Source: Escherichia coli
GTDB taxonomy: Bacteria > Pseudomonadota > Gammaproteobacteria > Enterobacterales > Enterobacteriaceae
Direction: 5' to 3' (one strand)
DNA length: 64,000 nt
Assembly: GCF_022846255.1 (NCBI RefSeq)
Contig: NZ_AP025682.1
In this document: piece by piece, positions 2,941 through 21,114 of the stretch
Layout of the letters: each line of letters begins with the position of its first letter
How positions within the stretch are numbered: position 1 is the first letter of the stretch
Position numbers and translations under genes: made by a program
Notes under the pieces: generated by a model
What the model was told of the DNA's origin: nothing
Database searches by the model: none
The model's input: the letters and a program-made list of their open reading frames with translations, nothing else

Positions 2941-2963
2941 TGGTGCGAAGGCCGGACTCGAAC
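2941..2963. repeat. distal att direct repeat: copy of the leuX 3' end
   Basis: TGGTGCGAAGGCCGGACTCGAAC matches the 3' end of the tRNA at 21030-21053 (TGGTGCCGAAGGCCGGACTCGAAC) except for one missing C. Confidence 0.85.
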
Positions 2964-2990
2964 ATATTAATTATCCCGTTGTATTTAAGG

Positions 2991-3200
2991 CTATTTTATC
3001 AAAATCATTATTGAAGTACCATCATTAATACCATCATAGGTATTGTTCTCCTTTGGCAACAGTTCTTTGATATCGAAATACTTTAACGAACTTTTTATGA
3101 CATCATACTTTGAAGAAAAAATCACATACTGATTTTCATCCAGTACATCTTGCAAGACAAGGTATAAAACAGGGACTACGATTAAAAATAGCAAAGTCAT
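2991..3200 (-). CDS. hypothetical small protein with N-terminal hydrophobic helix
   Basis: The ORF alone (69 aa, MTLLFLIVVPVLYLVLQ...). No recognisable family, and the region is very AT-rich. Confidence 0.2.
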   Translation of the reverse strand: MTLLFLIVVPVLYLVLQDVLDENQYVIFSSKYDVIKSSLKYFDIKELLPKENNTYDGINDGTSIMILIK

Positions 3201-3685
3201 TCACTAAATGAATTCAAAATCAGTGATGTTCTTATCTGCAAGAATATAATATATTTAAAAGATTATAAGCAATATATAAATAATAATATAGCTTTAAAAA
3301 AACACACATGAATTAGAAGTTAAATACATTAATTAAAGAAACAAATAAGTAAGAATTTTGTTTTTAAATAACTCATGCAAACGCATCGTTTATTTATATT
3401 AAAGGAAAATGATGAAATCCAATCTAAATTTAAATAGCTACATTACAAACGAATAGAAAAAGAAGCATTTTCCATGTTAAACTACTATCTTGGTGAAGAC
3501 AGGGGGTATAGCCTTCTGCGGTAGCCTACGCTCTTCGAATGCAAAGCAAGAAAATAACCTTTATAATCAAATTGTTATGCAATGCGCTTGTAGAGCAAAG
3601 GTATCTTAAACGAATAGGTTTAACAGTTAAAGCCTCTTTACATAGGCTGAACAAGGGCAGTACTTGAAAATGATAAAATTGGGGT

Positions 3686-5371
3686 ATGTTTAAAATTATG
3701 AATGCCCATAGTTTAGAGATGAGAAAAGAGTTAGGAGCATATTATACTCCAAGTGCTCTTAGTCAAGTGATGTCAGATTGGGCAATTAGAAGACCAACTG
3801 ATAAAATACTTGAGCCAAGTTTTGGAGGCTGTGGCTTTTTAGAAAGCTGTGAAAAGAGCCTCATGGAGATAGGCTGCATAAACCCAATGGAAAATTTATT
3901 TGGGGTTGATGTAGACCAAAAAGCCTTTGATACTCTCAAAAAAAAATATGGGCATTTATTAATAAAAAAACATTTCATTTTAAGTGATTTCATTAACGTA
4001 TTTCCAAAAGATTTTGGCATTGAAGATTTTGAGGTTATCATTGGGAACCCTCCTTATATCTCTATGCATAATATGAGTTATGAACAAAGGAAGTCCTGTG
4101 AAAAAGTTTTTGCTGACTCACCTTTTAAAACAAAAACATTAGGACGCAATGCAAGTCTTTGGGGGTTTTTCTTACTCCATGCATTAAGCTTCATTCGAGA
4201 AAATGGACGAATAGCGTGGGTATTACCGAGTAGTTTTTTAAATGCCTATTATGCGAAAGAGCTTATAAGAATTTACAAAAATCATTTTAACCATCTAAAA
4301 ATAATAAAGATAAATGAAAGACTTTTCAAAAATGAAGGTGCCGATGAAATGTCAGTACTTTTTTTATGCGATGAGTTTCACAGGACACCTATCAATAATG
4401 GATACGTTTCAATTGGATTTGCTGACACATTAAATGAACTAACCAGCATAATGACTGGAACTAAAGAAAACAAATTAAATAGCTCTGAAAATTACAAATA
4501 TAATATATTAGATATTGACACATTAAATGTGATATCGTCTATAACAGAACATAAGTACAGTTTAAAAATACAGGATATTGCTGATATAAAGATTGGGATG
4601 GTAACCGGCATGAACAACTTCTTTATATTGGATCAAAATCAAATTTTAAAACATAATTTAGACAATAAACATTTTAGACCAGTTATTTCACGATTTTCAC
4701 ATTTGAAGGGAATTCACCACACATTAAAAAGACATACGAAGTTAATTGCAGACAATAAAAAAGGATTGCTATTACACGTCAGTCCAGATGATTTATATGA
4801 AAAACATAGTCCGTTGAGAAAATATTTATCACAAGTTGATAGAAAAGAACGAGTCAAAAACCGCACATTCAAAAAACGAAAAAAGTGGTTTCAACCAGAT
4901 GATGGTATTTACCCAGACGCATTTTTTTCATATATGGTTCATGAGTTTCCCAGAATGATATTAAATAAAGGGAAAGTTAACTGCACTAACTCAATACATC
5001 GTATCTTTTTCAAAGATATAGCATCTAATAAATTAAAAAAAGCATGTTGCATATCTCTTTTATCAACATTTTCACAACTTTCTGCCGAACTTGAAGGTCG
5101 GTCATATGGCTCAGGTGTGCTAAAAATAGAGCCTACCGCAGGAAAGAACATATCATTCTTAATTAAAGATGATTTAATACACGAGTTAAGCAACTTAAGT
5201 AAAGAAATAGATCAATTGCTTTTAAATAATGAAACAAGCAATGCCACTGCTTTAGTTGATAAGTTTTTTGTTGATAAGGGACTAATTAGCTTAGATGAAT
5301 TGAAAAGTCTTAAAAAAGGGTTATTCAGATTAAGAAAAGATCGATATAAAGGGGTCAAAAATTATGAGTGA
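3686..5371 (+). CDS. N6-adenine DNA methyltransferase, gamma class (Eco57I/TaqI-like) with its own C-terminal target-recognition domain
   Basis: Motif order is GAYYTP (aa 17-22), then the AdoMet motif I EPSFGGCGF (aa 43-51), then the catalytic motif IV NPPY (aa 121-124). A C-terminal TaqI-like specificity signature is present: IKIGMVTGMNNFFIL. Confidence 0.85.
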   Translation: MFKIMNAHSLEMRKELGAYYTPSALSQVMSDWAIRRPTDKILEPSFGGCGFLESCEKSLMEIGCINPMENLFGVDVDQKAFDTLKKKYGHLLIKKHFILSDFINVFPKDFGIEDFEVIIGNPPYISMHNMSYEQRKSCEKVFADSPFKTKTLGRNASLWGFFLLHALSFIRENGRIAWVLPSSFLNAYYAKELIRIYKNHFNHLKIIKINERLFKNEGADEMSVLFLCDEFHRTPINNGYVSIGFADTLNELTSIMTGTKENKLNSSENYKYNILDIDTLNVISSITEHKYSLKIQDIADIKIGMVTGMNNFFILDQNQILKHNLDNKHFRPVISRFSHLKGIHHTLKRHTKLIADNKKGLLLHVSPDDLYEKHSPLRKYLSQVDRKERVKNRTFKKRKKWFQPDDGIYPDAFFSYMVHEFPRMILNKGKVNCTNSIHRIFFKDIASNKLKKACCISLLSTFSQLSAELEGRSYGSGVLKIEPTAGKNISFLIKDDLIHELSNLSKEIDQLLLNNETSNATALVDKFFVDKGLISLDELKSLKKGLFRLRKDRYKGVKNYE

Positions 5372-7673
5372 AGATATTCTTTTTTTGAAGGATAAGATGA
5401 AAGCCCTCCTGGATAATGAGGCTCTCGATTATGATAAAGTATTAGAAACAGCAGTAAAAATCACCGAAAAAGACAACAACAATATTAGATTTTCTGTAGA
5501 TGCGAATTTAGTTAGAAGATTAGGTGAGCAGTTAGTCGCTAAAAAAACTACTGCTGTCAGTGAATTGGTGAAAAATGCTTATGACGCAGATTCGACATTA
5601 GTAAATGTATATTTCGAATTGAACGAAGCAAATCCTCGAATAGTCATATTCGATGACGGCACAGGTATGTCAAAGGAAGATATTATCAATGGATTCATGC
5701 GAATAAGCACAAGTGAAAAAGAAGATAACTCTGTTTCAGAACGATATCAGAGACTAAGAGCAGGTAGAAAAGGTATTGGGCGTTTTTCTACACAGCGATT
5801 AGGAAATTATTTAAAAATAATTACCAAGCAAGAAAATGAAGAGTTAGGATATTTAATAGAAATTAACTGGCAGCAGTTTTCAAAAAAGAAAAATATATCC
5901 TTCATTGCTAACACTATCTCAAAAATCGATGTGGATTTCATTCATGGAACAAAAATAATAATAGAAGATCTGAATGATAAAGATTGGTCTGATGGGAACA
6001 TAAAAACGGCTTATAAATATATTAAGAGCATTATAAATATTGCCCCAAGCGAGACAGATCCAGGTTTCCAAGTAAAGTTCTATTATAAAAATGCCAATGG
6101 CTATGAATTAGTTGCAGATGAGAAAACTGAAATTTTTTCTGATAGTGATGCTCATATTACAGCAACACTTGAAAATGGAAATGCTGTAGTGAGAGTTAGC
6201 AGTGAAACCCTTGGCATAAAAAATGAAAGCATAGATGTATGGTATGATGAAAAAAATAACATACGAAAATTCTCACATATAAACTCTCCAGTAAAGCTTG
6301 ATGCATACTATTTCTCATTAGCAACAGTTAACTCCAGAAAACAAGCGGCATATTTACGTGAAAATGGCGGAATAAAAATCTATCGAAATGGATTCAAGGT
6401 TTCTCCTTATGGAGAGCAGTATGATGACTGGACGGCTCTTGATGACTCGGTTCGAAGGAGAAAGATATTACCCCCTCATGGTAATCAAAACTTCTTTGGA
6501 CACGTCAAAGTTGAAGACCTAAATGGAATAGACTTTGAAGAAACGTCCTCAAGGGAAGGTCTGATTCATACCGATGCCTTTCAAGAACTTCGCCTCTTTG
6601 TATATAAAGCACTGACGGCTGCGGTAATAAGAATTAGTGAAGCCAGAAATATAAAAATAAATCCAAATGACCGTAGCTATGTTAAAGAAACTAAACCAAC
6701 AATATCAGTCAAAGATAAATTAAATATTGTATCTGAAACGATAAGCTCGGTTAGTAAATTGGTAGATGCAGCAACATCTGTTGATGACGTTTCAAGTGAT
6801 GGTGTCATTAATAACATTGAAGATAAAAGTATAAGAAACAAAATTATTGAAGATCTCCATGAAGCCGCAGATGAGCTAAAACAAGCGAGTGTGATATCTC
6901 AATCTTTAATCGATGAAATTGAGCTTCTTAGAGTGCTTGGCGCTATGGGCCTTGCTATTGGTGAGTTTACACACGAAATAAATTTATCAATAACAAGTTT
7001 GAGTATTAACGTTCAAAACCTTAAACAGTCTAAATTATTAGAGGAAGATAGAGACTCTGCTCTAAATAGCCTTGAAAATAATATTGCAACATTAAAATCA
7101 TTTACTAAATTTTTTGACAGTACTATACGTGAGAATGTAAACAGAAATAAGAAAGTTATTGAGATAAGAGACTCTATTGAGCCATTTTATGAATCGATGA
7201 AACCAATAATAGAACGCAAAGGAATTCAGTTTGCAATACATTATGAAGGTTATGAACTTTTTACGAAGCCGATTCATGTTTCAGAGCTATATTCTGTATT
7301 TATAAATCTCTTTACGAATGCATATAAAGCAATACTTCGTTCTGGAACAAATCCACGAAAAATGTCTTTAACTGCGAAAAAAGATAGTGAAGATATAATT
7401 ATCCGATTCGAAGATAGCGGTGATGGAATTGAACCTGCAAATAGAGAAAGAGTTTTTGAGCCTTTCTATACAACAAGTACACCATCAGGACCTTTTGAAA
7501 GTGATGATTTATCATTAAAAGGAATGGGATTGGGGTTATCAATCGTACGTGATCTCGTTGAATCCATGTCTGCAGAAATATCTATAGTTGATGCATCCGA
7601 TGGTTTTACAACGTGCTTTGAGTTGAGAATTCCAAAAGCTGATGATAAGGAAATACCAGATGACATCTATTAA
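5364..7673 (+). CDS. double-GHKL protein: N-terminal MORC/MutL-like ATPase module + coiled region + C-terminal histidine-kinase core (H-box, N, G1, G2 boxes)
   Basis: N-terminal module: ELVKNAYDAD (N71, D74), DDGTGM (aa 97-102), GRKGIGRFS (aa 134-142). C-terminal module: IGEFTHEINLS (H537), INLFTNAYKA (N652), EDSGDGI (aa 683-689), GMGLGLSIV (aa 720-728). No predicted TM segment. The start overlaps the methyltransferase stop by 8 nt. Confidence 0.7.
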   Translation: MSEDILFLKDKMKALLDNEALDYDKVLETAVKITEKDNNNIRFSVDANLVRRLGEQLVAKKTTAVSELVKNAYDADSTLVNVYFELNEANPRIVIFDDGTGMSKEDIINGFMRISTSEKEDNSVSERYQRLRAGRKGIGRFSTQRLGNYLKIITKQENEELGYLIEINWQQFSKKKNISFIANTISKIDVDFIHGTKIIIEDLNDKDWSDGNIKTAYKYIKSIINIAPSETDPGFQVKFYYKNANGYELVADEKTEIFSDSDAHITATLENGNAVVRVSSETLGIKNESIDVWYDEKNNIRKFSHINSPVKLDAYYFSLATVNSRKQAAYLRENGGIKIYRNGFKVSPYGEQYDDWTALDDSVRRRKILPPHGNQNFFGHVKVEDLNGIDFEETSSREGLIHTDAFQELRLFVYKALTAAVIRISEARNIKINPNDRSYVKETKPTISVKDKLNIVSETISSVSKLVDAATSVDDVSSDGVINNIEDKSIRNKIIEDLHEAADELKQASVISQSLIDEIELLRVLGAMGLAIGEFTHEINLSITSLSINVQNLKQSKLLEEDRDSALNSLENNIATLKSFTKFFDSTIRENVNRNKKVIEIRDSIEPFYESMKPIIERKGIQFAIHYEGYELFTKPIHVSELYSVFINLFTNAYKAILRSGTNPRKMSLTAKKDSEDIIIRFEDSGDGIEPANRERVFEPFYTTSTPSGPFESDDLSLKGMGLGLSIVRDLVESMSAEISIVDASDGFTTCFELRIPKADDKEIPDDIY

Positions 7674-8763
7674 CCTACTTTATATCGATGATGATCAGCC
7701 TCAGCAAGTAAAGGGTTTAATTGAAGCAATAATCAGTAAAGCGAGTTTTGATTTAAATATAACTCATAAACCGCCGACGAAAATGAGTGAAATAGCCATA
7801 GAGTTGAGACAAGGTTATGATGGTATCATCATAGATCAAAAACTTGACAGCTTTGTTGAGGGAGTAGAACCAGTTGATTACTTTGGTGCCGCGTTAGCAC
7901 AAAATTTGCGAACACTCATGGCGGGTAAGTCAGATAATATATCTTATAAGCCAATAATTTTACTCTCTCTCGAAAGCTTATTAATTGAATATTATAATCC
8001 CGATTCAAGCTCGCATGATCTATTTGATTTAGTTTTGAGTAAAAGCATATTAGAACAACCAGAATTGTTAGAAAAAAAAGTTCACTTAATAAAATCTATT
8101 GTGAATGCTTACAAACGTGCACATTCGGAAGACTCGTTATATCAATTGCTTTCTCTGAGCAGTAATTATTCATTGCTTGATAAAAGATTTGAAATATATA
8201 TTTCTCAGTATGATAAAGATATACATAAGCTCGTCACATCCATACACTCCACACTTCTGAGAAGTAGTGGCATGTTAGTTTCTGAGATAACTTTGGCAAC
8301 CAGACTGGGTATTAATATTGAAGAATCGCCAGACTGGCACCAAGTAATTGGGCACCTTGAGGAATATAAATACAATGGCATATTCTCTGATTATTATAAA
8401 AGATGGTGGTGGGCAGATGTAGAGTTGTGGATAAATAAAAAGCTTAACTGCCCAATAATTAAAGGATTAACCTCAGAAAAAAGAGTGGAGATCATCAAAG
8501 AAAAACTTGGCTTAGAACGATTGATGCCAATTCATAGCGTACATCCAGGCCAAAGCACCAAGTTTTGGGTTAATTGTATCATCAGTAAAGAACCTCTTGA
8601 TACAATAGATGCTCTTCGTGCATCATCTATGGAATTAAAACCTTGGGAAGATGATAAATACCTTTCAATTAAAACAGTGTTAGAGAGACGGGCCGAAAAA
8701 TATAAAGTACATCCAGAAGATAGAACAAAATTGGATCGAATTCGGGCGAGGTTTAAATTATAA
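7660..8763 (+). CDS. receiver (REC)-like domain protein with uncharacterised ~230-aa C-terminal domain
   Basis: Numbering from the MTSINLLY start. The REC signature residues are in the right order: LLYIDDD (D10-12), GIIIDQKLD (D59), PIILLSL (S103), LVLSKS (K128). The C-terminal part (…YKRWWWADVELWINKK…) matches nothing I recognise. The ORF overlaps the upstream stop by 14 nt. An alternative start at 7642 is possible. Confidence 0.5.
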   Translation: MTSINLLYIDDDQPQQVKGLIEAIISKASFDLNITHKPPTKMSEIAIELRQGYDGIIIDQKLDSFVEGVEPVDYFGAALAQNLRTLMAGKSDNISYKPIILLSLESLLIEYYNPDSSSHDLFDLVLSKSILEQPELLEKKVHLIKSIVNAYKRAHSEDSLYQLLSLSSNYSLLDKRFEIYISQYDKDIHKLVTSIHSTLLRSSGMLVSEITLATRLGINIEESPDWHQVIGHLEEYKYNGIFSDYYKRWWWADVELWINKKLNCPIIKGLTSEKRVEIIKEKLGLERLMPIHSVHPGQSTKFWVNCIISKEPLDTIDALRASSMELKPWEDDKYLSIKTVLERRAEKYKVHPEDRTKLDRIRARFKL

Positions 8764-9506
8764 TGAACAATAATACAACTTTGTTAGACGATATGTGTAG
8801 GCTCAGGGACTTTTTATATGATAGCCGCATATGCCCAGATATTAATCCTCTCAACCGTTTAATCAGTAAACTTAATGCAAATCTCCACTCCGAAACAGGG
8901 GAGGACTTTGAATACTCTTTAGACGATTTAGTATTTTATCTTAGCGAAAAATCTGGAACAATTTGTCCGACCCAAATTACACCCAAAGAAAACCCTATTG
9001 AAATACATTTGGAACTTATATTAAAAAGTGAAGGCCCTTATGAATTTTCGAAGATTAAAGAACTTTCAGGGCAATTACGACTTAAAGCTGAGTGGATCAA
9101 TGACACAACAGAAAAAATTGAGATAAAAACATCACATAGTGCTTGGCATTTTGATTATCATGTTCCTCAAATGGGGGATGGCGTAAATTCATTTACTCAT
9201 CCTCAATTCCATTTACAAAATGGAGGAAACAGGCTGACTGATAATTTAAATGACTATGGAGAGTTAATGATTCTTGATGCTCCAAGACTACCTTTACCTC
9301 CTATGGATGTGATATTAGCCATTGACTTTATTATTTCAAATTTCTTTGGTTCTATTTGGCAACAAGCATTATGTGATTCAGAATACATTGATGTAGTTAA
9401 AAGAGCACAAAAAGCATGGTGGAAACCTTATTATGAAGGTATAAGTCAACACTGGTCTGGCAATGGCTCAGGAATATCCAATATCCTAATTCCAAACCTT
9501 CTGTAG
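8763..9506 (+). CDS. hypothetical protein, last gene of the operon (His-rich segment)
   Basis: ATG overlaps the upstream TAA (TAATG). 247 aa. Contains SAWHFDYHVPQMGDGVNSFTHPQFHLQNGG. No family recognised. Confidence 0.5.
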   Translation: MNNNTTLLDDMCRLRDFLYDSRICPDINPLNRLISKLNANLHSETGEDFEYSLDDLVFYLSEKSGTICPTQITPKENPIEIHLELILKSEGPYEFSKIKELSGQLRLKAEWINDTTEKIEIKTSHSAWHFDYHVPQMGDGVNSFTHPQFHLQNGGNRLTDNLNDYGELMILDAPRLPLPPMDVILAIDFIISNFFGSIWQQALCDSEYIDVVKRAQKAWWKPYYEGISQHWSGNGSGISNILIPNLL

Positions 9507-9716
9507 TGTATCAAAATCTGTTAACCATCTCCAATTACGAATAGCAATATTTATATAAAACTAATTTTTTATTTTAAACAACTTCAGCAAGGGCTAACTC
9601 TCAGCATCTCCTTCGGTGATACTTTGAGTTGCTCCTTGTTTTTTCGCCCTTTGGTTGAAAAAATTAAAAGCAAAACCAACCCTATACATTGACTTTTTCA
9701 GCATCTATCATATAAA

Positions 9717-9747
9717 TAAAATAAGCATAATGGACATGCTTATTTTA
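9717..9747. promoter_or_regulatory. 12-bp inverted repeat upstream of mobC (candidate oriT / mob promoter element)
   Basis: TAAAATAAGCAT-n7-ATGCTTATTTTA, about 25 nt before the mobC-like start. Location is typical for small-relaxase oriT, but no nic consensus was recognised. Confidence 0.3.
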
Positions 9748-9771
9748 CTTTACTATATGAAAGGAGTTCAT

Positions 9772-10185
9772 ATGAATGATAGGAATCATACTTTTAATAA
9801 GTTCGAGCCATTCAGAAGTTGTAGCTATGAAAATTTTACTTCTGCTAAAACACTCTCCCAGCAGACACGTTCTCATTGTATTAGTATCAGATTAAATGAT
9901 GCCGAGTTATCTTACGTTGATGGCTTACGAGAAGATCTCAACCGTGCTGTTTGGATACGTATGTCAGCATTGAATCGTCTCCCTTCCAAAATTCCTGAAA
10001 TAAATCTAATTGTCTGGAAAGACCTTGCCAAAGCATCTCAGAATCTGAATAACCTCGTTCAGCATCTCAACACTAAATCACACGATAGTCCTTTTACTAT
10101 CACCGAAATTTATACGGTACAAAAAAGAATAAAAGCACTAAGAGATGCCCTTCTGTCAGCAAATCGATCTGTCAGTGATAAATAA
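9772..10185 (+). CDS. MobC-like relaxosome accessory protein
   Basis: AAGGAG lies 6 nt upstream of the ATG at 9772. IRLNDAELSYVDGLRE... followed by a helical C-terminus is the usual MobC/ribbon-helix-helix pattern. The stop overlaps the relaxase start (TAATG). Confidence 0.6.
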   Translation: MNDRNHTFNKFEPFRSCSYENFTSAKTLSQQTRSHCISIRLNDAELSYVDGLREDLNRAVWIRMSALNRLPSKIPEINLIVWKDLAKASQNLNNLVQHLNTKSHDSPFTITEIYTVQKRIKALRDALLSANRSVSDK

Positions 10186-12473: not shown

Positions 12474-12566
12474 ACTTAATTATATTTGACAATAGAAAAA
12501 TAGTACGTCATAGATAGTAAATTGATAACAACCAGTGGGTTGAGCCACTGGCTGTTATCCCAATGG

Positions 12567-13756: not shown

Positions 13757-15388
13757 TTATTCTCCTTTTTTTATTCTCTTATGGAATTCATACCATCTAT
13801 CAGCATTTATGTTCCCATCATTTTTATCATACAGTGTTCTTTTTGAAATTTTATCGTGAATTTTTGAAATCGTTTCGTTATCTAAACCAGAATTCTCAAT
13901 CGGATAATGTTCACACGGCTTAAACGCATATGAGTGCTTGCAGTAGCCATGTTTTGATACCAGTACTGCACCACTACTAAGTGAATCAAACTCATTAAGA
14001 ACCACCACTGGAATATCCTTTATTCTGTGCTCATTAACACACACTGATAACTTTTGTTCTCTTATTGCTTTAGACATTTGAAGATGCGATCTGTGGTCAT
14101 AAGAAAAATTTTGAGAAATAAGCTTACGTCCAGACCAGCGAGCAATACTAAACTCATCCATACCATTTATTTGAGCAAAAGTGTTGAGAAGATGCCTCAG
14201 TTGATGTGTTCTTAGCAAATATGGGCTACCATCATCATTTATATAACCATGTCTTTTAAATACATTTAAATATCCTTTTATATAATCAGAATCAACGATA
14301 TCAGTTTTAAAAAAATTCGTTGTAGGTCTGAATAACTTATCTAACATTTCCTTTTTATTTTGATTTAACTGTCCTTCAGTTAACAAGCAAAGCGCATTAG
14401 AATATTTGATTTTCTTCTCTCTATCATACCAAAAGAGATCTGGAGGTATATTTTCTTTAAGGGTTCCCATCGTTGAATTAGAGTAATTCTTTTGAATTTC
14501 AGCAGCCAATAATCTCGCTTGACTTGATAATTCTTTTAATCTGCTAATAGCCTTTTTTGCTACAGGTATCATTAAAGTTGGAATCCATTTTATATTGCCT
14601 TCATACCCTTTTGCTGAAAAAAATCTTAAACCGTATCTTTGAATGCCCTTTCCATCACATTCTGTAATTTCACAATCCACTGGCAAAGCTAAAATTTCCG
14701 ATATCCTACTCGGTGCACACATAAGTAAAGCAAGCACAGATGTAGTAAATATATCTCTTGACGATAATTGTTCATCCCGCTTTGAAAAAATCTCAGCAAT
14801 CGCAATAACTGATTTGATATCAGGCAATCTAGAATGGCCTTCCAGTGAAGAATCATAACCAGTCCAAGACTGAGTAATCCTATACCTAATTGGACTTATC
14901 CAAAATAAATAAGATGAGTTAGTCATCCTATTATCATTTAAAAATGAACTCAATTTCTCAAGTTCTTTCCCAATAGCAAATGCATGTGCTTTAGAATACT
15001 TTTCAGAGGCTATCCTTATGCATTCATCAAAGATTGAATTGTTGCAATAGTTTACATTAGCTTCCATATTGATTTTAAGTAAAACGAATTCGACAATCTT
15101 CAACATTGATAATGTTGAGTGTTTCGTCTTAGATTTATTGAATGAATGCACATGCAACATATATGCTTTAGCAAAATTAATAAAGCTATCATCTAAGCAT
15201 TCTTTGCTGTTTAGGTTGTTTTTTGAGTTAAACTTAGTAAACCTATATAAACCTTTCCATTTATTGCTTTCCCAAGAAGTTGTTAAATTATTATTAGAAA
15301 TAGTACTCTTACAAAACTCGATGAACTTAATAACATTATCGTGAGGGTTGTTTTTATTGCTTGGTTCAAAAATAAATATATTGTTCAT
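13757..15388 (-). CDS. tyrosine recombinase, third of trio (543 aa)
   Basis: Catalytic signature in order: CAPSRISEILAL (Arg), THQLRHLLNT (HxxR), NFSYDHR (Tyr). Overlaps the upstream gene by 4 nt. Confidence 0.7.
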   Translation of the reverse strand: MNNIFIFEPSNKNNPHDNVIKFIEFCKSTISNNNLTTSWESNKWKGLYRFTKFNSKNNLNSKECLDDSFINFAKAYMLHVHSFNKSKTKHSTLSMLKIVEFVLLKINMEANVNYCNNSIFDECIRIASEKYSKAHAFAIGKELEKLSSFLNDNRMTNSSYLFWISPIRYRITQSWTGYDSSLEGHSRLPDIKSVIAIAEIFSKRDEQLSSRDIFTTSVLALLMCAPSRISEILALPVDCEITECDGKGIQRYGLRFFSAKGYEGNIKWIPTLMIPVAKKAISRLKELSSQARLLAAEIQKNYSNSTMGTLKENIPPDLFWYDREKKIKYSNALCLLTEGQLNQNKKEMLDKLFRPTTNFFKTDIVDSDYIKGYLNVFKRHGYINDDGSPYLLRTHQLRHLLNTFAQINGMDEFSIARWSGRKLISQNFSYDHRSHLQMSKAIREQKLSVCVNEHRIKDIPVVVLNEFDSLSSGAVLVSKHGYCKHSYAFKPCEHYPIENSGLDNETISKIHDKISKRTLYDKNDGNINADRWYEFHKRIKKGE

Positions 15389-16710
15389 AATGCTCTCCAG
15401 GGATTGAATTTTTTACACGTTAAGCATTTCAAATCCTCTTTCGTATCTTCTAATAAGAAAAATGCATCTGAAACATACTTGATAAAAAAGTTCTTGTTTT
15501 CTTCAATCTCTATGCCCATAAGTATATTAGATAAGGGGTTAAAAAACGCACTTAGTCTCTTATCGATGTCATAAACGTTGTCAGGATTGTTTTTTATATA
15601 TATCATAGAAGAGTTTACTGATTTATGATCTAAGGCTTTAGCAATCACCTCAATTGAGGCTCCTTCGTTAGCCAGTCGACTTCCTAACGTATATCTGAAT
15701 CTTCTAGCATTAAGTTCTATATAGCTGTTAGTCCTTTCTGACCTAACATCGAATTTTGACGGAAAGTGTTTTAATAGTTTTGACATAACTGAATTTTTCA
15801 TATGGAAAAAATCTGTTGTTAAATCAGATAAAAAATCCTCAATCCTTTTTGTTTCCGTAATCTTATCTAAATTCATGAAGATTGGTAATTCGCCTCTATA
15901 GTTATTAATCCCAACACTGAATTTATCTTCAACAAACGCCTGATTTTGATTAATTAGCATTGATAAACTGTCATATAAGAACGGTTCTATCATTACCATA
16001 TTAAATTCTTTTCTGAAACATTTTCTTTGTTTTACTTTTGGTACATTCAAAAAGCACCCTCTCTCATTTTTAATGAGATCTTTAGCTTTTAGAGATATCA
16101 ATTGTAATGGCCTTCTTCCTGTTATTGCCAGCAAAAGGATATAACAATACAAAAAGCATTGAATTTTCTTCTCATGATAAAATTTTCCAACGGCGTTAAT
16201 AATGTTATTGAATTCCGTTTCAGTTAAAGGTCCTTTATTTGGATCTCGTCTTTTAACTGCATCTCCTGTTTGGTTTGGAATGATTTTTATTTTCTCCAGC
16301 ATTCTAATGGCAGTCGCATCTACCCCAGGGTAATTGAGATTTTTCCATTTAGTGATGAAAGCCTTAATTGAGTTTAGTTTGTAGTTTCTTTCTGAACCTA
16401 AATAAACATTCAATTGATATATTGCTTTGTCATCAATAGTATCGATGGTCATTGCACCAAACCACTTATAAAATAGATTGTTAATATTTTGTATATAAAA
16501 AGAACTATATTCAGACGCATAGTAAGCTAATGTTTTTAAGTAGCTAAGTTTCATTTTTGTAGGCATTCTATCTACAACTTTATGAGGGTATACGCAGTTT
16601 TCTTTATCAAGTTGCCATTTCTTATCTGACAGTTTGAAACTATATCTATTCATCTTAGCAAAAAAAATTTGCTCACTTTCAATACATTTTATTTCCACAT
16701 TAAACCCCAC
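15385..16710 (-). CDS. tyrosine recombinase, second of trio (441 aa)
   Basis: ITGRRPLQLISLK (Arg), ARRFRYTLGSRLANEG (xxR box), VNSSMIYIKN (Tyr). Overlaps the upstream gene by 11 nt. Confidence 0.65.
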   Translation of the reverse strand: MGFNVEIKCIESEQIFFAKMNRYSFKLSDKKWQLDKENCVYPHKVVDRMPTKMKLSYLKTLAYYASEYSSFYIQNINNLFYKWFGAMTIDTIDDKAIYQLNVYLGSERNYKLNSIKAFITKWKNLNYPGVDATAIRMLEKIKIIPNQTGDAVKRRDPNKGPLTETEFNNIINAVGKFYHEKKIQCFLYCYILLLAITGRRPLQLISLKAKDLIKNERGCFLNVPKVKQRKCFRKEFNMVMIEPFLYDSLSMLINQNQAFVEDKFSVGINNYRGELPIFMNLDKITETKRIEDFLSDLTTDFFHMKNSVMSKLLKHFPSKFDVRSERTNSYIELNARRFRYTLGSRLANEGASIEVIAKALDHKSVNSSMIYIKNNPDNVYDIDKRLSAFFNPLSNILMGIEIEENKNFFIKYVSDAFFLLEDTKEDLKCLTCKKFNPWRAL

Positions 16711-17905
16711 TAATTATTTTACTTACTGATTTATAGACCTTTAGGACGACATCCTTCTCTTGTTGGGATATATATTTAAAATTGTATCTATTACACATGA
16801 TTGACTCCTTTGACCAACCCATTAGATAATTCCTTAAATCTTTCCTTCTACTATATTCTAATTCAGCGCCTTCAATTCCTTTAGAATACATATAATTCCA
16901 AGAGTGCCTTAACCTATGACCTGAAAGATTATATAGCTTTGGACTTGCTCGTTTCAGTGTTGATATCACCTTCTCATAAGCTGAAATGCTTAAGGGTTCT
17001 CCTGCGTTTTTTCCGGTGCAATGAGCCACGAATAAGAAATTATGTTTTTTCCTTTTTGTCATTTTTTCCCTGCTATTGCTTATGTAATCAAAAATTTCAC
17101 TGGCTAACTCATCAGATAACGGAATAACCCTTTCTCCAGTCTTTACTAATGGCTGATAAGCTCTTCCATCTTCTTTTGAATCATGTCTTCTGACTACACT
17201 TAAAGTGTTGTCTCTGAGATCAAAATCATCTATTTTAAGATTGAGCAACTCTCCAGCCCTTAAACCTAAATTTAAGAGCAAGGTAAATATTAGTCTGTTC
17301 CTGACCTGTACTTCCTTATGAAAAGGGTTTTCAATCCCACCAATTTCCAATAGACGGAAAAGCACATTGATCTCTTCTTCATTTAACGATTTTTCAGATA
17401 TTTCATTCATATTCAATGAACTGTTTCTTGGAATATGTGCTCTGATACTTTCAATAAATACTTCTACTTCATACTTTGCATGAATCCCCTTTGACGAATG
17501 AACTAATCCACATAACCACTTAAGGTAGCGTGAAAAAACGTGTACTCTATAACTAAAGGTTCTCTTTGCAATAAACCTATTACTTGCTGATTTTATATTT
17601 ATAATTTTTTGTCTATCGAATCTTTGTTTCGCATATCTTACCAGATCATCTATTTCTGCAACGCTGAGATACTTTTTAAGCTCAATTCTCTCAACTATAT
17701 TAATTTTCCTACTATCTAAGAAATTACTAAAAATTAGTAAGTTAGTTGCAACTATTTCCATAGTTGAGGCGGTTGCGCCTCTATTTCTTATGTCTGTAGT
17801 AAGAAATAGATTTTGATAGTAAGCTGGTAGATTACTATTTTTATCAAGGATCAGGCATCCTCGCTCCCCATTACTCATGATGAATTTCTTTACTTTATAT
17901 CCCAT
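16700..17905 (-). CDS. tyrosine recombinase, first of trio (401 aa)
   Basis: NLGLRAGELLNLK (Arg), SGHRLRHSWNY (HxxR), MCNRYNFKY (Tyr). Confidence 0.7.
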   Translation of the reverse strand: MGYKVKKFIMSNGERGCLILDKNSNLPAYYQNLFLTTDIRNRGATASTMEIVATNLLIFSNFLDSRKINIVERIELKKYLSVAEIDDLVRYAKQRFDRQKIINIKSASNRFIAKRTFSYRVHVFSRYLKWLCGLVHSSKGIHAKYEVEVFIESIRAHIPRNSSLNMNEISEKSLNEEEINVLFRLLEIGGIENPFHKEVQVRNRLIFTLLLNLGLRAGELLNLKIDDFDLRDNTLSVVRRHDSKEDGRAYQPLVKTGERVIPLSDELASEIFDYISNSREKMTKRKKHNFLFVAHCTGKNAGEPLSISAYEKVISTLKRASPKLYNLSGHRLRHSWNYMYSKGIEGAELEYSRRKDLRNYLMGWSKESIMCNRYNFKYISQQEKDVVLKVYKSVSKIISGV

Positions 17906-18030: not shown

Positions 18031-18048
18031 TTATTTGACGTCAAATAA
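18031..18048. repeat. perfect 18-bp palindrome TTATTTGACGTCAAATAA upstream of the recombinase trio
   Basis: Read directly. A related half-site TACGTCAAATAT occurs at 18142-18153. Confidence 0.6.
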
Positions 18049-18287
18049 ACAGGTACGGCTAGTATTGAGTATCCATACCCGATATTAAGAAAACCATCTT
18101 CAACCCTTATAGCAAAAGCTCTGCTAGAAAAAAGGTAAAGAATTACGTCAAATATACTTATTTTTCAGATACAAACTTTACAAAGCCTCTTTTTTTTCAA
18201 AGCCACTAAGTAAACTCAAAAGATCTCTAAATTCCTTTTTCTTAATACATTATCAAAAGTTAAAAAATCCATGAAGCAGCATTCCTG

Positions 18288-18491
18288 TTAAGCGACATGC
18301 TTTCTTGAATTTTCGATAATTAATTGAATCCATTCATCGATTTCGCTTTCTACAAAAGCGGTAGCACGAATACCGATCTTTACTGGCTGTGGGAACCGAT
18401 TTTGGCTGATAAGACGATAGATCCACGCTTTACCAAATCCAGTTTTCTTCATGACTTCTGGTAAACGGATGAGACGAGCTTGATTTTCCAT
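18288..18491 (-). CDS. AlpA-family DNA-binding protein (excisionase/regulator type)
   Basis: From MENQARLIRLPEVMKKTGFGKAWIYRLISQNRFPQPVKIGIRATAFVESEIDEWI, the typical AlpA/MerR-like HTH sequence. I rejected the longer ORF start at 18575. Confidence 0.75.
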   Translation of the reverse strand: MENQARLIRLPEVMKKTGFGKAWIYRLISQNRFPQPVKIGIRATAFVESEIDEWIQLIIENSRKHVA

Positions 18492-18611
18492 ATGTATGTC
18501 CTCTGTTGTGTCTACAGGGCTACAGTACAAATGAATTTCGAATGGATGAAGCGAGATTACGAACATCAGAGCCATCCCTGGCTCGAAACTATGAGTCTCT
18601 GGAGATTCATA

Positions 18612-19481
18612 TCACTCAGAGTCTGAGAGTTTCATAACATCCGAAACCCTCATTTCTTTAACATGCTGATTTTTATTGATAAAAAAGTTAAATTGCCTTA
18701 AAAAATCAATTTCTACAGTTTTCATTGCGAAAGGCCGATCAGCATCTCTTATATGATATCCTTGGCGAATCGCCTTATCATCATCTTCATCCGTGTATAG
18801 CAATCGAGATAATCTGTCGTCTGACAGAAGTAATTTTTTTCTTTCTGACCATGCGAGCAAATCAAGCATAGGGATAATTCGATAGCTAATTAATTTTTTT
18901 ATTGCCCCATAACCAAATCTGACTGCATCAAGTGGTGCAGGTTTAACGCCTTTTACTTTTCGCCATTGTGGTAATGATACTCGCAGGGCCTCAGCTATCT
19001 CATCATCGCTTCCACCCGCAAGATCGATTTCTAACATAATCGTAGTAGGAAACTGTTCAGGAATTTTTTCGGAAATATATTCATTTTCAATAGTGGAATC
19101 AATTTTATATTGTTCTGTATTTGCTCTAATGAATAAAGCCTTTCTCATACAATCAAAACTGATATTTGCTATTCGATCAACAGTAGTAATAAAAAAGTAT
19201 GGGGGTTGATATAATTTATTTTCGGCATCCATATAATTTAAGTGCTTCTCTTTGATAAGAAAAGGATCACCATCCAATATCTGCATATAATTTTTCAATA
19301 CTGTTTTCTGCATTCCTTCTTCTATTACTGGTTTGAAAAAATAGGTTCTCGCCCATATTTCATGGTAAAGCATATTAATAGAAATGTTTTCAAACCCTCG
19401 ATATTTGTCCAAATCAAACCACGTTTTCACTGCTTTGGTGTCTTCTGATGTCCAACTATTCATTTTTACCCAAGATTTCAT
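18612..19481 (-). CDS. hypothetical protein between integrase and alpA-like gene
   Basis: ORF of ~290 aa. The start is ambiguous: ATG at 19481 with GGAG upstream, or GTG at 19523. No family recognised. Confidence 0.45.
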   Translation of the reverse strand: MKSWVKMNSWTSEDTKAVKTWFDLDKYRGFENISINMLYHEIWARTYFFKPVIEEGMQKTVLKNYMQILDGDPFLIKEKHLNYMDAENKLYQPPYFFITTVDRIANISFDCMRKALFIRANTEQYKIDSTIENEYISEKIPEQFPTTIMLEIDLAGGSDDEIAEALRVSLPQWRKVKGVKPAPLDAVRFGYGAIKKLISYRIIPMLDLLAWSERKKLLLSDDRLSRLLYTDEDDDKAIRQGYHIRDADRPFAMKTVEIDFLRQFNFFINKNQHVKEMRVSDVMKLSDSE

Positions 19482-19592
19482 TAATGCCACTCCGTTGTAA
19501 AAAGTTTTACTTCGTAATAGCACATAAATCGCAAATAAAAAAATGGCGTCTCAATTGGTTATTGAATACGCCATTTTACTCATAAAAATCAG

Positions 19593-20840
19593 TTAGTTAT
19601 TAAAATCAAAAGGTGCAATTCTTCTCTTAGTTGTTTCATCAAGATAATCAGCCCACCACTGCAACATCAACCTACGCTCATCCAAATGCTCAGCTTTATG
19701 AATGTATGCGGCACGAACGGAGTTCCGCTCCTGATGGCTCATCTGCCTCTCAACAGCATCTCTCGACCACTTTCCTGACTCGATCAAAGCACTACAAGCC
19801 ATCGCTCTAAAACCATGCCCACATACCTCAACGGTTGTGTCATAACCCATCGCCCTGAGCGCCTTGTTCACTGTGTTTTCGCTCATAGGTTTTCTGAAAT
19901 CATGATCGCCAATGAATACCAGGTCGCATTCGCCGCTGATTTCTCTGATGGCTTTTAGAAGTTCTAAAGCCTGACGACTTAACGGCACGAGGTGTGGGGT
20001 CTTCATTTTTGAACCTCGATGGGAATGTTTGACTCCTGGCAATAGCTCGCGTTCTCCAGGGATAGTCCACATCGCATTTTCAAAGTCGATCTCCGACCAT
20101 CTTGCGAATCGGAGTTCAATGGAACGGATAAAAATGAGCAATGTCAGCTTCACAGCTAATTTAGTAAGTTTCCTACCTTTAAAGCTTTCAATGCGCTCTA
20201 AAAGCTCTGAGAACCTATCAAATGGTAAGGCTGGTCTGTGGGTTCGTTTCGCAACTGTAATTGCCCCAGACATATCTTGTGCTGGATTGTAGTCAATTAA
20301 GCCATTCTGGACGGCATATCGCATTACTGCCGTAGTCCTTTGCTGTAGTCGGGAAGCAACTTCCAGTCGTCCAGAAGCTTCAACGGCCTTGATAGGGGCG
20401 ATAAGATCTCTGGTATTAAGCTCGGATATTTTTCTTTTACCAATAGCAGTAAAGAGACCATCCTCCATGCTTTTTAGAACTCTTTCGCTGTGAGAATCTG
20501 ACCATTTCCTTTTACAGGCAGTATGCCAGTCCCTTGCAACAGCTTCGAATGTCAGGGCTTCGCTTTGCTCAATCTTATCTGCTTTTTTCTTTTCAGAAGG
20601 ATCGATACCATCAGATACCAACTTTTTGGCTTCATCTCGCTTCCTGCGGGCTTCACCAAGAGAGACCATTGGATAAACACCCAATGCTAAAACTTTCTGT
20701 TTGCCCCCGAAACGGTATTGGAGTCGCCAGTACTTTGAACCATTGGGGTTGATCAGCAGGTGCATACCCTGCCCATCTGTGAGTTTGAAAGGTTTATCGG
20801 AGGGCTTTGTTGTTCGAACTTTGATATCAGTGAGTGCCAT
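19593..20840 (-). CDS. P4-type tyrosine integrase (intact, 415 aa)
   Basis: N-terminal arm-binding type sequence MALTDIKVRTTKPSDKPFKLTDGQGMHLLINPNGSKYWRLQYRFGGKQK. Catalytic region includes GHGFRAMACS (HxxR) and AAYIHKAE (Tyr). It sits adjacent to the tRNA 3' end. Confidence 0.9.
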   Translation of the reverse strand: MALTDIKVRTTKPSDKPFKLTDGQGMHLLINPNGSKYWRLQYRFGGKQKVLALGVYPMVSLGEARRKRDEAKKLVSDGIDPSEKKKADKIEQSEALTFEAVARDWHTACKRKWSDSHSERVLKSMEDGLFTAIGKRKISELNTRDLIAPIKAVEASGRLEVASRLQQRTTAVMRYAVQNGLIDYNPAQDMSGAITVAKRTHRPALPFDRFSELLERIESFKGRKLTKLAVKLTLLIFIRSIELRFARWSEIDFENAMWTIPGERELLPGVKHSHRGSKMKTPHLVPLSRQALELLKAIREISGECDLVFIGDHDFRKPMSENTVNKALRAMGYDTTVEVCGHGFRAMACSALIESGKWSRDAVERQMSHQERNSVRAAYIHKAEHLDERRLMLQWWADYLDETTKRRIAPFDFNN

Positions 20841-21029
20841 CAGTTGATACCTCCATTGTTGGTACCAAAATCAATCGAACCGAGAATACCATCAGTTATA
20901 CCATCATCGGTTGGTATATGTTCAAGGAATTGAGTAGACGTGAACAGACTAAGCCAAGTCAGAAACTCGCTTAACTTACTGTTTTTTTGGACTAAAGTAG
21001 ACGTTAGTAGACTTGAAAAAAGCTTTGTA

Positions 21030-21114
21030 TGGTGCCGAAGGCCGGACTCGAACCGGCACGTATTTCTACGGTTGATTTTGAATCAACTGCGTCTACCGAT
21101 TTCGCCACTTCGGC
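21030..21114 (-). tRNA. leuX: tRNA-Leu (anticodon CAA)
   Basis: The reverse complement reads GCCGAAGTGGCGAAATCGGTAGACGCAGTTGATTCAAAATCAACCGTAGAAATACGTGCCGGTTCGAGTCCGGCCTTCGGCACCA. It is 85 nt with a long variable arm, CAA in the anticodon loop and an encoded CCA. Confidence 0.95.

Follow-up and report, generated by a model that had tools for sequence, protein, structure and literature searches.

The locus studied here raises the question of what the AT-rich DNA beside leuX is, by what route it came there, and whether it can still move. The window, that is, the whole 64-kb stretch of DNA analysed, is E. coli chromosome and contains one tRNA gene, tRNA-Leu(CAA), placed by ARAGORN at 21030-21114 on the minus strand. 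The earlier note proposed that an island of about 18 kb is delimited at this gene by an att direct repeat, consisting of the 3' 24 nt of leuX and a 23-nt copy from which one C is absent. The two copies are as follows.

21030..21114, minus strand: leuX, tRNA-Leu(CAA); the 24 nt at its 3' end (21030-21053) form the tRNA-side att copy (attL-like)
2941..2963, no strand assigned: distal att copy (attR-like), a 23-nt version of the leuX 3' end minus one C

The plus-strand sequences, TGGTGCCGAAGGCCGGACTCGAAC at 21030-21053 and TGGTGCGAAGGCCGGACTCGAAC at 2941-2963, confirmed this description. The exact 18-mer CGAAGGCCGGACTCGAAC had two sites only in the 64 kb, one in each att copy, and as a measure of chance expectation 100 shuffles gave zero matches even with 2 mismatches permitted. 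The repeat was also found by an ungapped repeat finder (family D9, spacing 18,090). The segment between the copies is 18,066 bp long, and 2941-21029, which includes one repeat copy, is 18,089 bp long. The GC content was 34.7% at 2964-21029, 46.7% at 1-2940 and 50.4% at 21115-64000, and the GC profile agrees with the claim that the interior is AT-richer than the backbone (34.7% vs 50%).

As an empty-site query, a composite of 2141-2940 fused to leuX and the right flank (21030-21830) was aligned to 5,426 complete E. coli genomes. A full-length alignment in one piece was obtained in 459 of these genomes, CFT073 among them. In CFSAN061771 the identical left flank lies directly against intact leuX, and the flank junction is exact to the base in both CFT073 and CFSAN061771. 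The boundaries of the island are therefore those placed earlier, to the base, and in island-free genomes the two flanks are fused at one leuX. The comparison also supports the suggested site-specific integration into the leuX 3' end. Other leuX islands show the single-C form of the repeat at their distal junctions too; the missing C is not private damage of this island. It would hinder recombination if it lay inside the strand-exchange overlap.

The features outside the distal repeat are given below.

2903..2927, minus strand: terminator-like hairpin and T-run (terminator scan), contiguous with leuX in CFT073 and CFSAN061771
1949..2818, minus strand: 3'-truncated P4-type integrase of an older leuX island, catalytic domain lost
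547..1440, plus strand: BrxR-family WYL-domain regulator, in the older leuX island and outside the 18-kb element

The hairpin, just beyond the distal repeat, has a GC-rich stem of 7 bp and a T-run (2927-2910, minus strand) and folds with -17.6 kcal/mol (z = -3.9). Its position directly 3' of leuX in island-free genomes bears out the idea that it is the original leuX terminator. The regulator was assigned from Pfam WYL and from the name that RefSeq gives it in relatives carrying this flank. The truncated integrase matches Pfam Arm-DNA-bind_3 and Phage_int_M only, its frame breaks past ...SMWTIP relative to the CFT073 copy, and it is a partial pseudogene in the annotation of relatives. The DNA beyond the distal repeat is thus what remains of an older, decayed leuX island and not backbone, a point absent from the earlier note. 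Because the distal flank is such a remnant with a truncated integrase, we regard the arrangement as tandem accretion at leuX.

At the tRNA end of the island lie the genes expected to act on these sites, and candidate arm-type sites are found at both ends.

19593..20840, minus strand: P4-type (CP4-like) tyrosine integrase, 415 aa, intact; Arm-DNA-bind_3, Phage_int_M and Phage_integrase
18612..19523, minus strand: DUF6387 protein, 289 aa from the RefSeq start 19481; backbone gene
18288..18575, minus strand: alpA-family gene, 67 aa from the RefSeq start 18491; Pfam Phage_AlpA (PF05930), 2.7e-20
20886..20906, plus strand: between int and leuX, ATACCATCA twice with 12-nt spacing; candidate arm-type sites, proximal arm
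3016..3036, plus strand: TACCATCA twice with 12-nt spacing; candidate arm-type sites for integrase binding, distal arm

Both the intact integrase adjoining the tRNA and the nearby AlpA-like gene had been recognized before. The integrase ORF has the complete three-domain architecture, and R (IRSIELR), K, HGFR, H and Y were identified in it by eye. Solved domains of CP4-like integrases match this protein in its N-terminal and core-binding domains. It shares 68% identity with the leuX integrase of the CFT073 type, and its orthologues in other genera, 87-99% identical, adjoin leuX. The alpA-family product, which weakly matches a solved AlpA-family protein, is presumed by analogy to be a recombination directionality factor or excision activator. 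The window has 8 copies of the motif ATACCATCA, where 0.44 would be expected (18-fold over-represented). A 12-nt-spaced doublet of the motif is present at both island ends, and the distal-end doublet also in the A42 island.

The earlier note missed the relaxase/oriT module, the three additional recombinase genes and what kind of cargo the island has. The relaxase/oriT module consists of the following parts.

9584..9660, plus strand: candidate oriT-like conserved non-coding block; GCAAGGGCTAAC, an inverted repeat, then TTTTTTCGCCCTTTGGTTG
9689..9745, plus strand: promoter-like TTGACA / TATCAT (promoter scan), then a conserved small hairpin, ahead of mobC
9772..10185, plus strand: MobC-like relaxosome accessory gene, 137 aa, named from position only
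10185..11372, plus strand: relaxase, 395 aa, MobA/VirD2 nuclease domain (Pfam PF03432, 1.6e-26), MOBP-like

The conserved island backbone begins at the oriT-like block; loci of many genera have it ahead of mobC, in 17 distinct versions. The consensus fold of the block has 14 pairs, 3 with compensatory changes, with a covariation term of about zero; from this conserved structure it may contain the nick site. The region 9689..9745 has conserved columns in a 35-sequence alignment. The MobC-like protein had no family match in the domain and family searches, but in relatives its gene is always immediately 5' of the relaxase gene, and plasmid relatives of the relaxase carry an annotated MobC at the equivalent position. 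The relaxase shows Y19 and a histidine triad (HDDEDGQHIH) by eye, has a sub-threshold match to NCBIfam TraI/MobA(P), and shares about 35% identity with the pWES-1 relaxase, a MOBP type according to MOB-suite. Mating-pore, coupling-protein and replication families had no Pfam match in any ORF of at least 70 aa.

We therefore think it probable, taking the explanation as a whole, that 2941-21029 is an integrative mobilizable element inserted at the leuX 3' end by its own P4-type integrase. In this reading the element entered by tyrosine-recombinase site-specific recombination between its own attP and the leuX 3' end; the tRNA gene was rebuilt intact on the integrase side, and the 23-nt leuX' copy was left at the far end, in front of the older decayed island. 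The families involved suggest the following life cycle. For excision, Int and the AlpA-family protein would recombine both att copies to give a circle; such excision at the present day is plausible, as the parts look intact. The MobC-like protein and the MOBP-type relaxase would then nick the oriT-like site at about 9584-9660. Since pore genes are absent from the island, the strand would presumably use the mating pore of a conjugative plasmid in the same cell, and Int would re-insert the circle into leuX of the recipient.

An unlikely alternative is that the island integrated in this way but is now a fixed, immobile relic, for example through the deletion in the distal att copy or silent regulatory defects. 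The imperfect distal copy agrees with this, as do the decayed elements that leuX arrays accumulate, such as the neighbouring truncated integrase, and the rarity of the full island: it is whole in one other genome among the 5,426 complete E. coli genomes, so transfer is not frequent. However, the single-C form is common in leuX islands with intact integrases, and the backbone ORFs are all full length, with the lengths annotated in relatives. The other carrier, TUM11353, has the island inserted at the same nucleotide with 41 differences in 18.17 kb (99.77% identical), whereas its distal flank is another one (hsdR) and its flanking core genes are about 93-97% identical. An island that differs by 0.23% between flanks that differ by 3-7% has moved recently. 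The empty-site junctions and this near-identical island amid diverged flanks thus support well both site-specific integration and recent horizontal spread between lineages.

The gene order tRNA, P4-type int, DUF6387, alpA, ginABCD, mob is conserved in more than 40 Enterobacterales loci. A tRNA gene lies just upstream of the P4-type int in 16 of 44 loci from other species: leuX in 11 loci (Int 87-99% identical to the present integrase), thrW in 2 (39%) and tRNA-Arg(TCT) in 3 (39-40%). E. coli also has a thrW member of this island group. The identity of GinC across loci varies from 36% to 97%, independently of the tRNA target. By sequence comparison it is the P4-type integrase, unlike gin, that tracks the target. 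The gin genes themselves, and the gene beside them, are listed here.

16700..17905, minus strand: ginA-like tyrosine recombinase, 401 aa; Pfam Phage_integrase, 1.1e-18
15385..16710, minus strand: ginB-like tyrosine recombinase, 441 aa (437 from the RefSeq start); Pfam Phage_integrase
13757..15388, minus strand: ginC-like gene, 543 aa; tyrosine-recombinase fold, C-terminal Cys/His cluster
13358..13756, minus strand: ginD-like gene, 132 aa, nucleotide-identical to the TUM11353 gene WP_001052044.1
12851..13273, minus strand: conserved backbone gene, 140 aa, 3' of ginD in most relatives

The ginA-like protein shows GLRAGEL, HRLRH, W and Y by eye, and the ginB-like protein scores 325 bits against NCBIfam integrase_1 (cut-off 350). 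The ginC-like protein has no Pfam match, but its AF2 model (pLDDT 75) has Cre, XerH and IntI as matches, at probability 1.0, and R227, H394, R397, W417 and Y429 are invariant across 22 homologues. The 140-aa protein had no credible match in the domain and family searches. The four overlapping genes from 17905 to 13358, encoding three tyrosine-recombinase-fold proteins and a small protein, are a ginABCD operon, the hallmark of "GInt" islands, situated 3.1 kb inside the tRNA/P4-Int-bounded island. These three further recombinase-type genes could aid or interfere with the movement of the island.

It is quite unlikely, in our opinion, that the island, or its part from ginA to the distal end, is a GInt moved by ginABCD, with int-DUF6387-alpA merely as a landing pad. 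This idea is favoured by the operon layout and by a published survey, in which orthologues of the ginC-like gene are entered as ginC in the ginC-ginD list and WP_001052044.1 appears among the ginD orthologues (Additional file 10 of PMC10214605). In Pseudomonas, integration and excision require all four gin genes (PMC5385486). In addition, islands that have diverged far more in their other modules still share 93-98% identity in the gin block. However, the conserved block does not end at the same place in all relatives: one edge lies at 18184, 18476, 18652 or 21150 and the other at ginD or the 140-aa gene, a pattern that looks like homologous exchange. The A42 island and the gut isolate locus L023 have both ends, the int module and the cargo in common (97.9%), whereas their gin operons are 54-70% identical. 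Moreover, the flanking repeat is a tRNA 3' end beside a P4-type integrase, which co-varies with the tRNA target as gin does not, and repeat and sequence searches found no gin-specific direct repeats.

The island carries, in addition, the features below.

3686..5371, plus strand: cargo gene 1, Eco57I-like N6-adenine DNA methyltransferase, 561 aa; Pfam N6_Mtase / Eco57I / M_Eco57I_C
5364..7673, plus strand: cargo gene 2, 769 aa, two GHKL ATPase domains (Pfam)
7642..8763, plus strand: cargo gene 3, 373 aa (367 from the RefSeq start), no recognisable domain
8763..9506, plus strand: cargo gene 4, 247 aa, no recognisable domain
11581-12171, plus strand: DUF4755 protein (Pfam)
12183-12473, plus strand: lipoprotein-like protein, 96 aa, signal-peptide/Cys motif in the translation
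12524..12559, no strand assigned: perfect 15-bp inverted repeat between two convergent gene blocks (terminator scan), probably a bidirectional terminator

Cargo gene 1 matches PADLOC MTase_II (2.3e-89). The product of cargo gene 2 has an N-terminal HATPase_c_3 domain (MORC/MutL-like) and a histidine-kinase-like C-terminal part; its NCBIfam similarities, to the BbrUII/HgiDII N-terminus and to histidine kinases, are all well under the cut-offs, and its homologues of about 770 aa are spread over many phyla. Cargo genes 3 and 4 had no Pfam, NCBIfam, PADLOC or PHROG match. The four-gene cassette also occurs in defence hotspots of Vibrio and Pseudomonas, where a Pfam-less gene of similar size and position to cargo gene 3 follows the methyltransferase and GHKL genes. 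The cassette is most likely a restriction-like defence or addiction module.

That the island is a PICI-like or P4-like phage satellite, which a helper phage would package, and does not move by conjugation, an already disfavoured reading, is extremely improbable: the P4-type integrase and AlpA-family gene beside a tRNA, the size below 20 kb and the defence cargo also fit Gram-negative satellites, but primase/replicase, capsid-size redirection, terminase small subunit, Psu/Sid/Delta and cos-related genes were not detected (Pfam, PHROGs), and a relaxase, a MobC-like partner and an oriT-like site are present instead.

Compared with known elements, the island has the same target, leuX 3'-end direct repeat and tRNA-adjoining integrase as PAI II536 of E. 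coli 536 and the CFT073 leuX island, which are tRNA-integrated islands with P4-like integrases. Excision and leuX-specific re-integration of PAI II536 have been demonstrated experimentally, with an added mobilization region needed for the experiments (PMC3202238), whereas the present island has its own relaxase/oriT. It is also smaller (18 kb vs 107 kb) and, unlike the PAI II536-type islands, lacks virulence genes and has a gin operon. With GInts (2017; surveyed by Idola et al. 2023) it shares the overlapping four-gene operon, with ginC/ginD-like orthologues in the published list, and variable, often RM-type cargo. However, archetypal GInts have gin at the element 5' end and imperfect repeats of their own of 10-17 nt, target protein-coding genes and are considered non-mobilizable, whereas this island is bounded by a tRNA and has a relaxase. 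The literature describes GinC as a protein without the catalytic motif, while the present GinC-like protein keeps R, H-x-x-R, W and Y invariant.

EARL / ROD21-like islands (e.g. ICEKp258.2), which excise as a circle, share the P4-type integrase, AlpA-family directionality factor, DUF6387, relaxase and RM-type cargo (PMC10763509). They differ in tRNA-Asn targets, MOBQ relaxase, TraD, type IV pilus genes and H-NS, have alpA/DUF6387 at the end opposite int, and lack a gin operon. The Pseudomonadota integrative mobilizable elements (PIMEs; bioRxiv 10.64898/2026.01.12.698999), found in E. coli and relatives, share int and alpA, mobilization functions and a large accessory region rich in immune systems; their core is int, alpA, replicase, trbJ and trbL, whereas neither replicase nor trb was detectable here by Pfam. 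Gamma-Mobile-Trio (GMT) islands share two tyrosine-type recombinases with a third protein and defence-rich cargo, but the similarity to GmtY is faint (22-24 bits, cut-off 340), their insertion sites are inverted repeats, and P4-type integrase and relaxase are not defining parts of them.

In conclusion, the leuX island is of the usual integrase-driven type, to which a plasmid-type transfer gene, a restriction-like cassette and, unexpectedly, three recombinase genes are added.

The only tRNA gene found in the window is leuX, which encodes tRNA-Leu(CAA), at 21030-21114 on the minus strand. The 24 nt of its 3' end read, on the plus strand (21030-21053), TGGTGCCGAAGGCCGGACTCGAAC, and the same sequence minus one C recurs as a 23-nt copy at 2941-2963, just as an earlier note, made from the sequence alone, had described. 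The exact 18-mer common to the two copies has no third site in the 64 kb. A chance origin of the repeat was rejected: 0 matches were expected, and no shuffle gave any, even with two mismatches allowed. The same note had called the DNA between the copies AT-richer, and we found its GC content to be 34.7%, against 46.7% on the left and 50.4% on the right. The island bounded by the repeat is 18,089 bp long when one copy is counted. Its features, preceded by two genes of its left flank, are as follows.

547-1440, left flank, BrxR-family WYL regulator
1949-2818, minus strand, left flank, a second, truncated P4-type integrase that keeps its arm-binding and core-binding domains and breaks off before the catalytic domain
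3686-9506, four-gene cassette: Eco57I-like N6 methyltransferase, 769-aa dual-GHKL ATPase protein and two domain-less proteins
9584-9660, conserved non-coding block
9772-11372, MobC-like gene and relaxase
11581-12473, DUF4755 protein and small lipoprotein-like protein
12851-13273, minus strand, 140-aa gene, the first of the minus-strand block
13358-17905, minus strand, four overlapping genes of 132, 543, 441 and 401 aa
18288-18575, minus strand, alpA
18612-19523, minus strand, DUF6387
19593-20840, minus strand, int, the P4-type integrase

An intact P4-type integrase next to the tRNA and an AlpA-like gene nearby had been reported, and both are present: int is full-length and lies 189 nt from the tRNA gene, and alpA belongs to the AlpA family. 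The integrase has 415 aa and three Pfam domains, of which the catalytic one spans profile positions 4-170 of 172; its catalytic motifs were seen by eye, and its domains match solved CP4-like integrases. Among the island genes we found no replication, mating-pore, coupling-protein or phage-structural families. The AT-rich gap between the convergent gene blocks contains a perfect 15-bp GC-containing inverted repeat (12524-12559), which sits in a segment that is variable among island relatives and is probably a bidirectional terminator.

In order to locate the empty site, we built a composite in which the 800 nt of left flank up to 2940 are followed by leuX and 717 nt of right flank (801 nt from 21030). 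This composite aligned unbroken over its full length in 459 of the 5,426 complete E. coli genomes. In the base-level alignment to CFT073, a strain without the island, the flank continues directly into one complete leuX, and in CFSAN061771, another such strain, the exact left flank of the window, truncated integrase included, adjoins leuX. That is, the boundaries are real, and the flanks meet base-exactly at a single leuX. Three features of a tRNA-integrated P4-integrase island, namely a repeat of the tRNA 3' end, a full-length adjacent integrase and an empty site, were found. The observation of the earlier note was thus confirmed, and its interpretation, integration into the leuX 3' end by site-specific recombination, is supported by the genome comparison.

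The sequence immediately outside the distal copy required a modified interpretation. A hairpin with a T-run does adjoin this copy on the outer side (2927-2910, minus strand). It had been taken as the original leuX terminator; it is indeed the sequence that followed leuX before the insertion, but it is part of an older element. The truncated integrase, an IS fragment next to it and the BrxR regulator rule out that the distal flank is chromosome backbone, and in relatives the flank extends into Wadjet-like, phosphorothioate-dependent restriction and Zorya II genes. The left flank is what is left of an older leuX island. Strain PD23 has the same left flank, and there another island fills the slot between it and leuX. 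Because of this older-island flank and the different PD23 island in the same slot, leuX is a site of serial, tandem accretion.

On the other side, just right of leuX and ahr, the idnK-idnDOTR block (22333-27400) is present in the window, CFT073 and strain A42. It is missing in TUM11353 (an E. coli with a near-identical island), CFSAN061771 and strain ZH177, where ahr (in ZH177, an ahr remnant) adjoins yjgR. The block is a presence/absence polymorphism beside the integration hotspot.

The one-C-short repeat occurs at the distal junctions of the window (2941-2963), A42, PD23 and comparison locus L014 (L004 6453-6476; L006 22940-22962; L014 about 20814), and PD23 has it though its leuX island type is unrelated. 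Strain-specific damage is ruled out by the recurrence of the same form in A42, PD23 and L014. The tRNA-side copy has CC in every case, and TUM11353 has CC at both copies. In L014 and in L023, a locus of a gut isolate, the sequence left of GCGAAGG is unrelated to leuX. These findings suggest that the attP core carried by the element has one C, and the chromosome-derived and element-derived sequences would join at about the position of the missing C. Such an origin of the one-C form from attP speaks against reading the missing C as decay.

The sequence ATACCATCA occurs 8 times in the window against 0.44 expected. Three exact copies mark the ends of the island: two are found between int and leuX (20886 and 20898), and one at the distal end (3028) is paired with a near-copy at 3016. 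In each doublet the copies are 12 nt apart and point the same way. This doublet is also present at the distal end of the A42 island, despite a different surrounding sequence. Taken with the arm-binding domain that the integrase has, these doublets would fit a conventional attP with candidate arm-type sites.

The whole island was found in only one of the 5,426 complete E. coli genomes searched, that of TUM11353. Over 18.17 kb the two islands show 41 differences (99.77% identity), and the adjacent core genes are much less similar, with about 93% in the ahr region, 94.7% in yjgR and 96.9% in lptG. Beyond its distal repeat, TUM11353 has a type I hsdR gene and another hairpin, unlike the window, and yet identity to the window starts at the same nucleotide despite the differing distal flank. 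The same element at the same position in two diverged lineages and two distal contexts is what site-specific integration after horizontal transfer predicts. These comparisons indicate that the island moved recently.

The island also carries a mobilization module. The relaxase has a MobA/VirD2 nuclease domain (PF03432, 1.6e-26), an N-terminal tyrosine, Y19, and the histidine triad HDDEDGQHIH. Its closest plasmid relatives belong to small mobilizable plasmids, and the nearest plasmid relaxases are typed MOBP; one of these relatives, pWES-1, is typed MOBP and has MobC upstream. The conserved block upstream of mobC, a candidate oriT, consists of GCAAGGGCTAAC, an inverted repeat and TTTTTTCGCCCTTYGGTTG, and 17 versions of its sequence occur in various genera. 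Its inner stem varies in sequence and keeps its complementarity, with a compensatory change in 3 of 14 pairs and a covariation term of about 0. Its CGCCCT core presumably resembles MOBQ/P nick regions, which we treat as a lead. No Pfam family of T4SS mating-pore or coupling-protein genes was found in any ORF of at least 70 aa. That is, as expected of an IME, the island has its own relaxase and no mating-pore or coupling-protein genes of its own, and from this gene content it is predicted to be mobilizable 'by design'. Before mobC, at 9689-9745, most family members have a TTGACA promoter close to the consensus, together with a conserved hairpin of small size (AAGCAT...ATGCTT), which may be an operator controlling the mobilization genes.

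The four genes at 13358-17905 are co-directional, overlapping by 11 and 4 nt and then abutting. The 401-aa and 441-aa proteins (GinA- and GinB-like) match the tyrosine-recombinase family in Pfam, and the 543-aa GinC-like protein has no family match there. When GinB and GinC were compared by sequence with solved structures, no significant match was obtained; only the fold search succeeded. The AlphaFold model of the GinC-like protein (22 homologues, pLDDT 75) matches Cre, XerH and IntI, and R227, H394, R397, W417 and Y429, which are invariant in the 22 homologues, are located on the corresponding helices and strands of the model. Motif and model together thus point to a putative R/H-x-x-R/W/Y catalytic set. 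The same protein (13757-15388, minus strand) has a conserved C-terminal Cys/His cluster of C482, H484 and C491.

A ginABCD operon, encoding three recombinase-type proteins and a small protein, defines the GInt islands (PMC5385486), and the island has this layout of three tyrosine-recombinase-type proteins and a small protein. The published list of ginC/ginD orthologues (Additional file 10, PMC10214605) includes WP_001052044.1, the product of a gene nucleotide-identical to 13358-13756, as well as the orthologues, 543 aa long, from the A42-type and O55:H7 islands. The extra recombinase genes are a gin operon. According to the published descriptions, GinC is without the catalytic RHRY motif, whereas the GinC-like protein of the window keeps the R, H-x-x-R, W and Y positions.

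To find relatives, we scanned one genome per species and obtained 44 loci, which were compared by tblastn with the island proteins and by tRNA finding. The family relatives include E. coli O55:H7/O157:H7, Klebsiella, Pectobacterium and Pantoea, and E. coli has thrW members as well as decayed members near ileY. The order tRNA, int, DUF6387, alpA, ginA-D, 140-aa gene, relaxase, mobC is kept across Enterobacterales, even at 30-40% Gin identity. The identity of Int to that of the window follows the target, being 87-99% at leuX (11 loci), 39% at thrW (2) and 39-40% at tRNA-Arg(TCT) (3). The identity of GinC is unrelated to the target, with 39-43% in six leuX loci and 94-95% in both thrW loci. In L023, int, DUF6387 and alpA are 96-100% identical to those of the window, and the Gin proteins are only 54-70% identical; L023 and A42 have both ends in common and cargo that is 97.9% identical, and their centres differ.

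One possibility is that the operon is a discrete GInt nested in the island with its own ends. The gin block, 93-98% identical, has different edges in different relatives, and we recognized no gin-specific 10-17-nt imperfect flanking repeats around 12.85 kb and 18.2 kb, where short imperfect ones could be missed. As neither repeats nor constant block edges were found, this possibility is unsupported. In a GInt, moreover, gin occupies the 5' end and ginD is directly followed by cargo, whereas here ginA is separated from the island end by int, DUF6387 and alpA, an order seen in more than 40 loci. Since Int tracks the tRNA target, GinC does not, and the modules are mosaic, we conclude from these alignments that the P4-type integrase sets the island ends and that gin is an internal, exchangeable module of the backbone. 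A decayed relative near ypjA/ileY in O55:H7 and O157:H7 strains (in O55:H7 CB9615, locus L003, 11470-22745) keeps DUF6387, alpA, ginABCD, the relaxase and an ABC-three-component cargo, and its P4-type integrase is gone.

The two domain-less proteins of the cargo are about 370-385 and 245-250 aa long. The four-gene arrangement recurs in V. cholerae, in the hotspot that separates integrase from cI repressor in a P2-like prophage, and in P. aeruginosa, where a Shedu gene is its neighbour. In both, the GHKL protein is 38-42% identical, and its companions are an Eco57I-type methyltransferase and two genes that lack domains and match in size. PADLOC v2 did not name the cassette as a system; what it recognized was limited to the methyltransferase and a partial stretch of REase_II-like ATPase. 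A known defence system was rejected, there being no match to MADS or to the HEF_HK / Response_reg_2 pair. With regard to a type II restriction-modification system, the cargo has a clear methyltransferase, and no nuclease domain was recognized in it; the similarity of the GHKL protein to BbrUII/HgiDII-type enzymes is confined to their N-terminal ATPase part (96 bits, cut-off 550). MORC-like GHKL ATPases have long been associated with restriction-modification (PMC8011034), and the cargo falls within this association but without the domains defined there. Most likely it would be a restriction-like defence or addiction module. An unnamed methyltransferase/GHKL cassette of four genes thus recurs in the defence hotspots of three different mobile-element types.

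Among known islands, the closest in behaviour are the P4-integrase leuX islands of the PAI II536 type; for PAI II536, excision and leuX-specific re-integration were demonstrated (PMC3202238). The EARL islands (PMC10763509) have int, AlpA, DUF6387 and a relaxase in common with it. EARL/ROD21-like islands, however, target tRNA-Asn and carry a MOBQ relaxase and TraD, pilus and H-NS genes; the window island targets tRNA-Leu, its nearest plasmid relaxases are MOBP, and TraD, pilin and H-NS families had no match in it. Target, relaxase type and accessory backbone thus differ. The PIME core is int, alpA, replicase, trbJ and trbL, of which the island has int and alpA only, with no match to replicase, TrbJ or TrbL families. 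The Gamma-Mobile-Trio comprises GmtY, GmtZ and GmtX, whereas here the matches to the GmtY model reach 21.9 and 24.3 bits, its cut-off being 340, and GmtZ and GmtX have no match. The island was therefore not assigned to PIME, EARL, GMT, PICI or P4 satellites, each of which it departs from in at least one defining feature; it has the hallmark operon of GInts but not their architecture.

A leuX island with att repeats is an ordinary, textbook phenomenon. The literature that we searched held no report of a gin operon consistently embedded in tRNA/P4-integrase-bounded, relaxase-bearing islands, and a 2026 preprint on genomic islands as hitchers makes no mention of this family. The window island, clean and delimited in full, exemplifies a family that is widespread in Enterobacterales. 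This family combines a P4-type integrase with a MOBP relaxase and the GInt recombinase operon, and thus three mobility systems, and it shuffles defence cassettes among tRNA hotspots.

We speculate, as a tentative and rather doubtful proposal, that ginABCD in Enterobacterales may be a conserved internal module of such tRNA-targeting, relaxase-bearing islands and not the engine of a free-standing island. Recombination would then have two tiers, in which the P4-type integrase and AlpA set chromosomal entry and exit and the three gin recombinases do a second job. If this is true, that job could be, for example, the capture or exchange of cargo next to the backbone, insertion at secondary sites where the host has no tRNA site free, or circularisation by copy-out ahead of transfer, and the view of GInts as non-mobilizable would be overturned. 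The island offers a tractable E. coli system for the role of the three gin recombinases alongside a conventional integrase.
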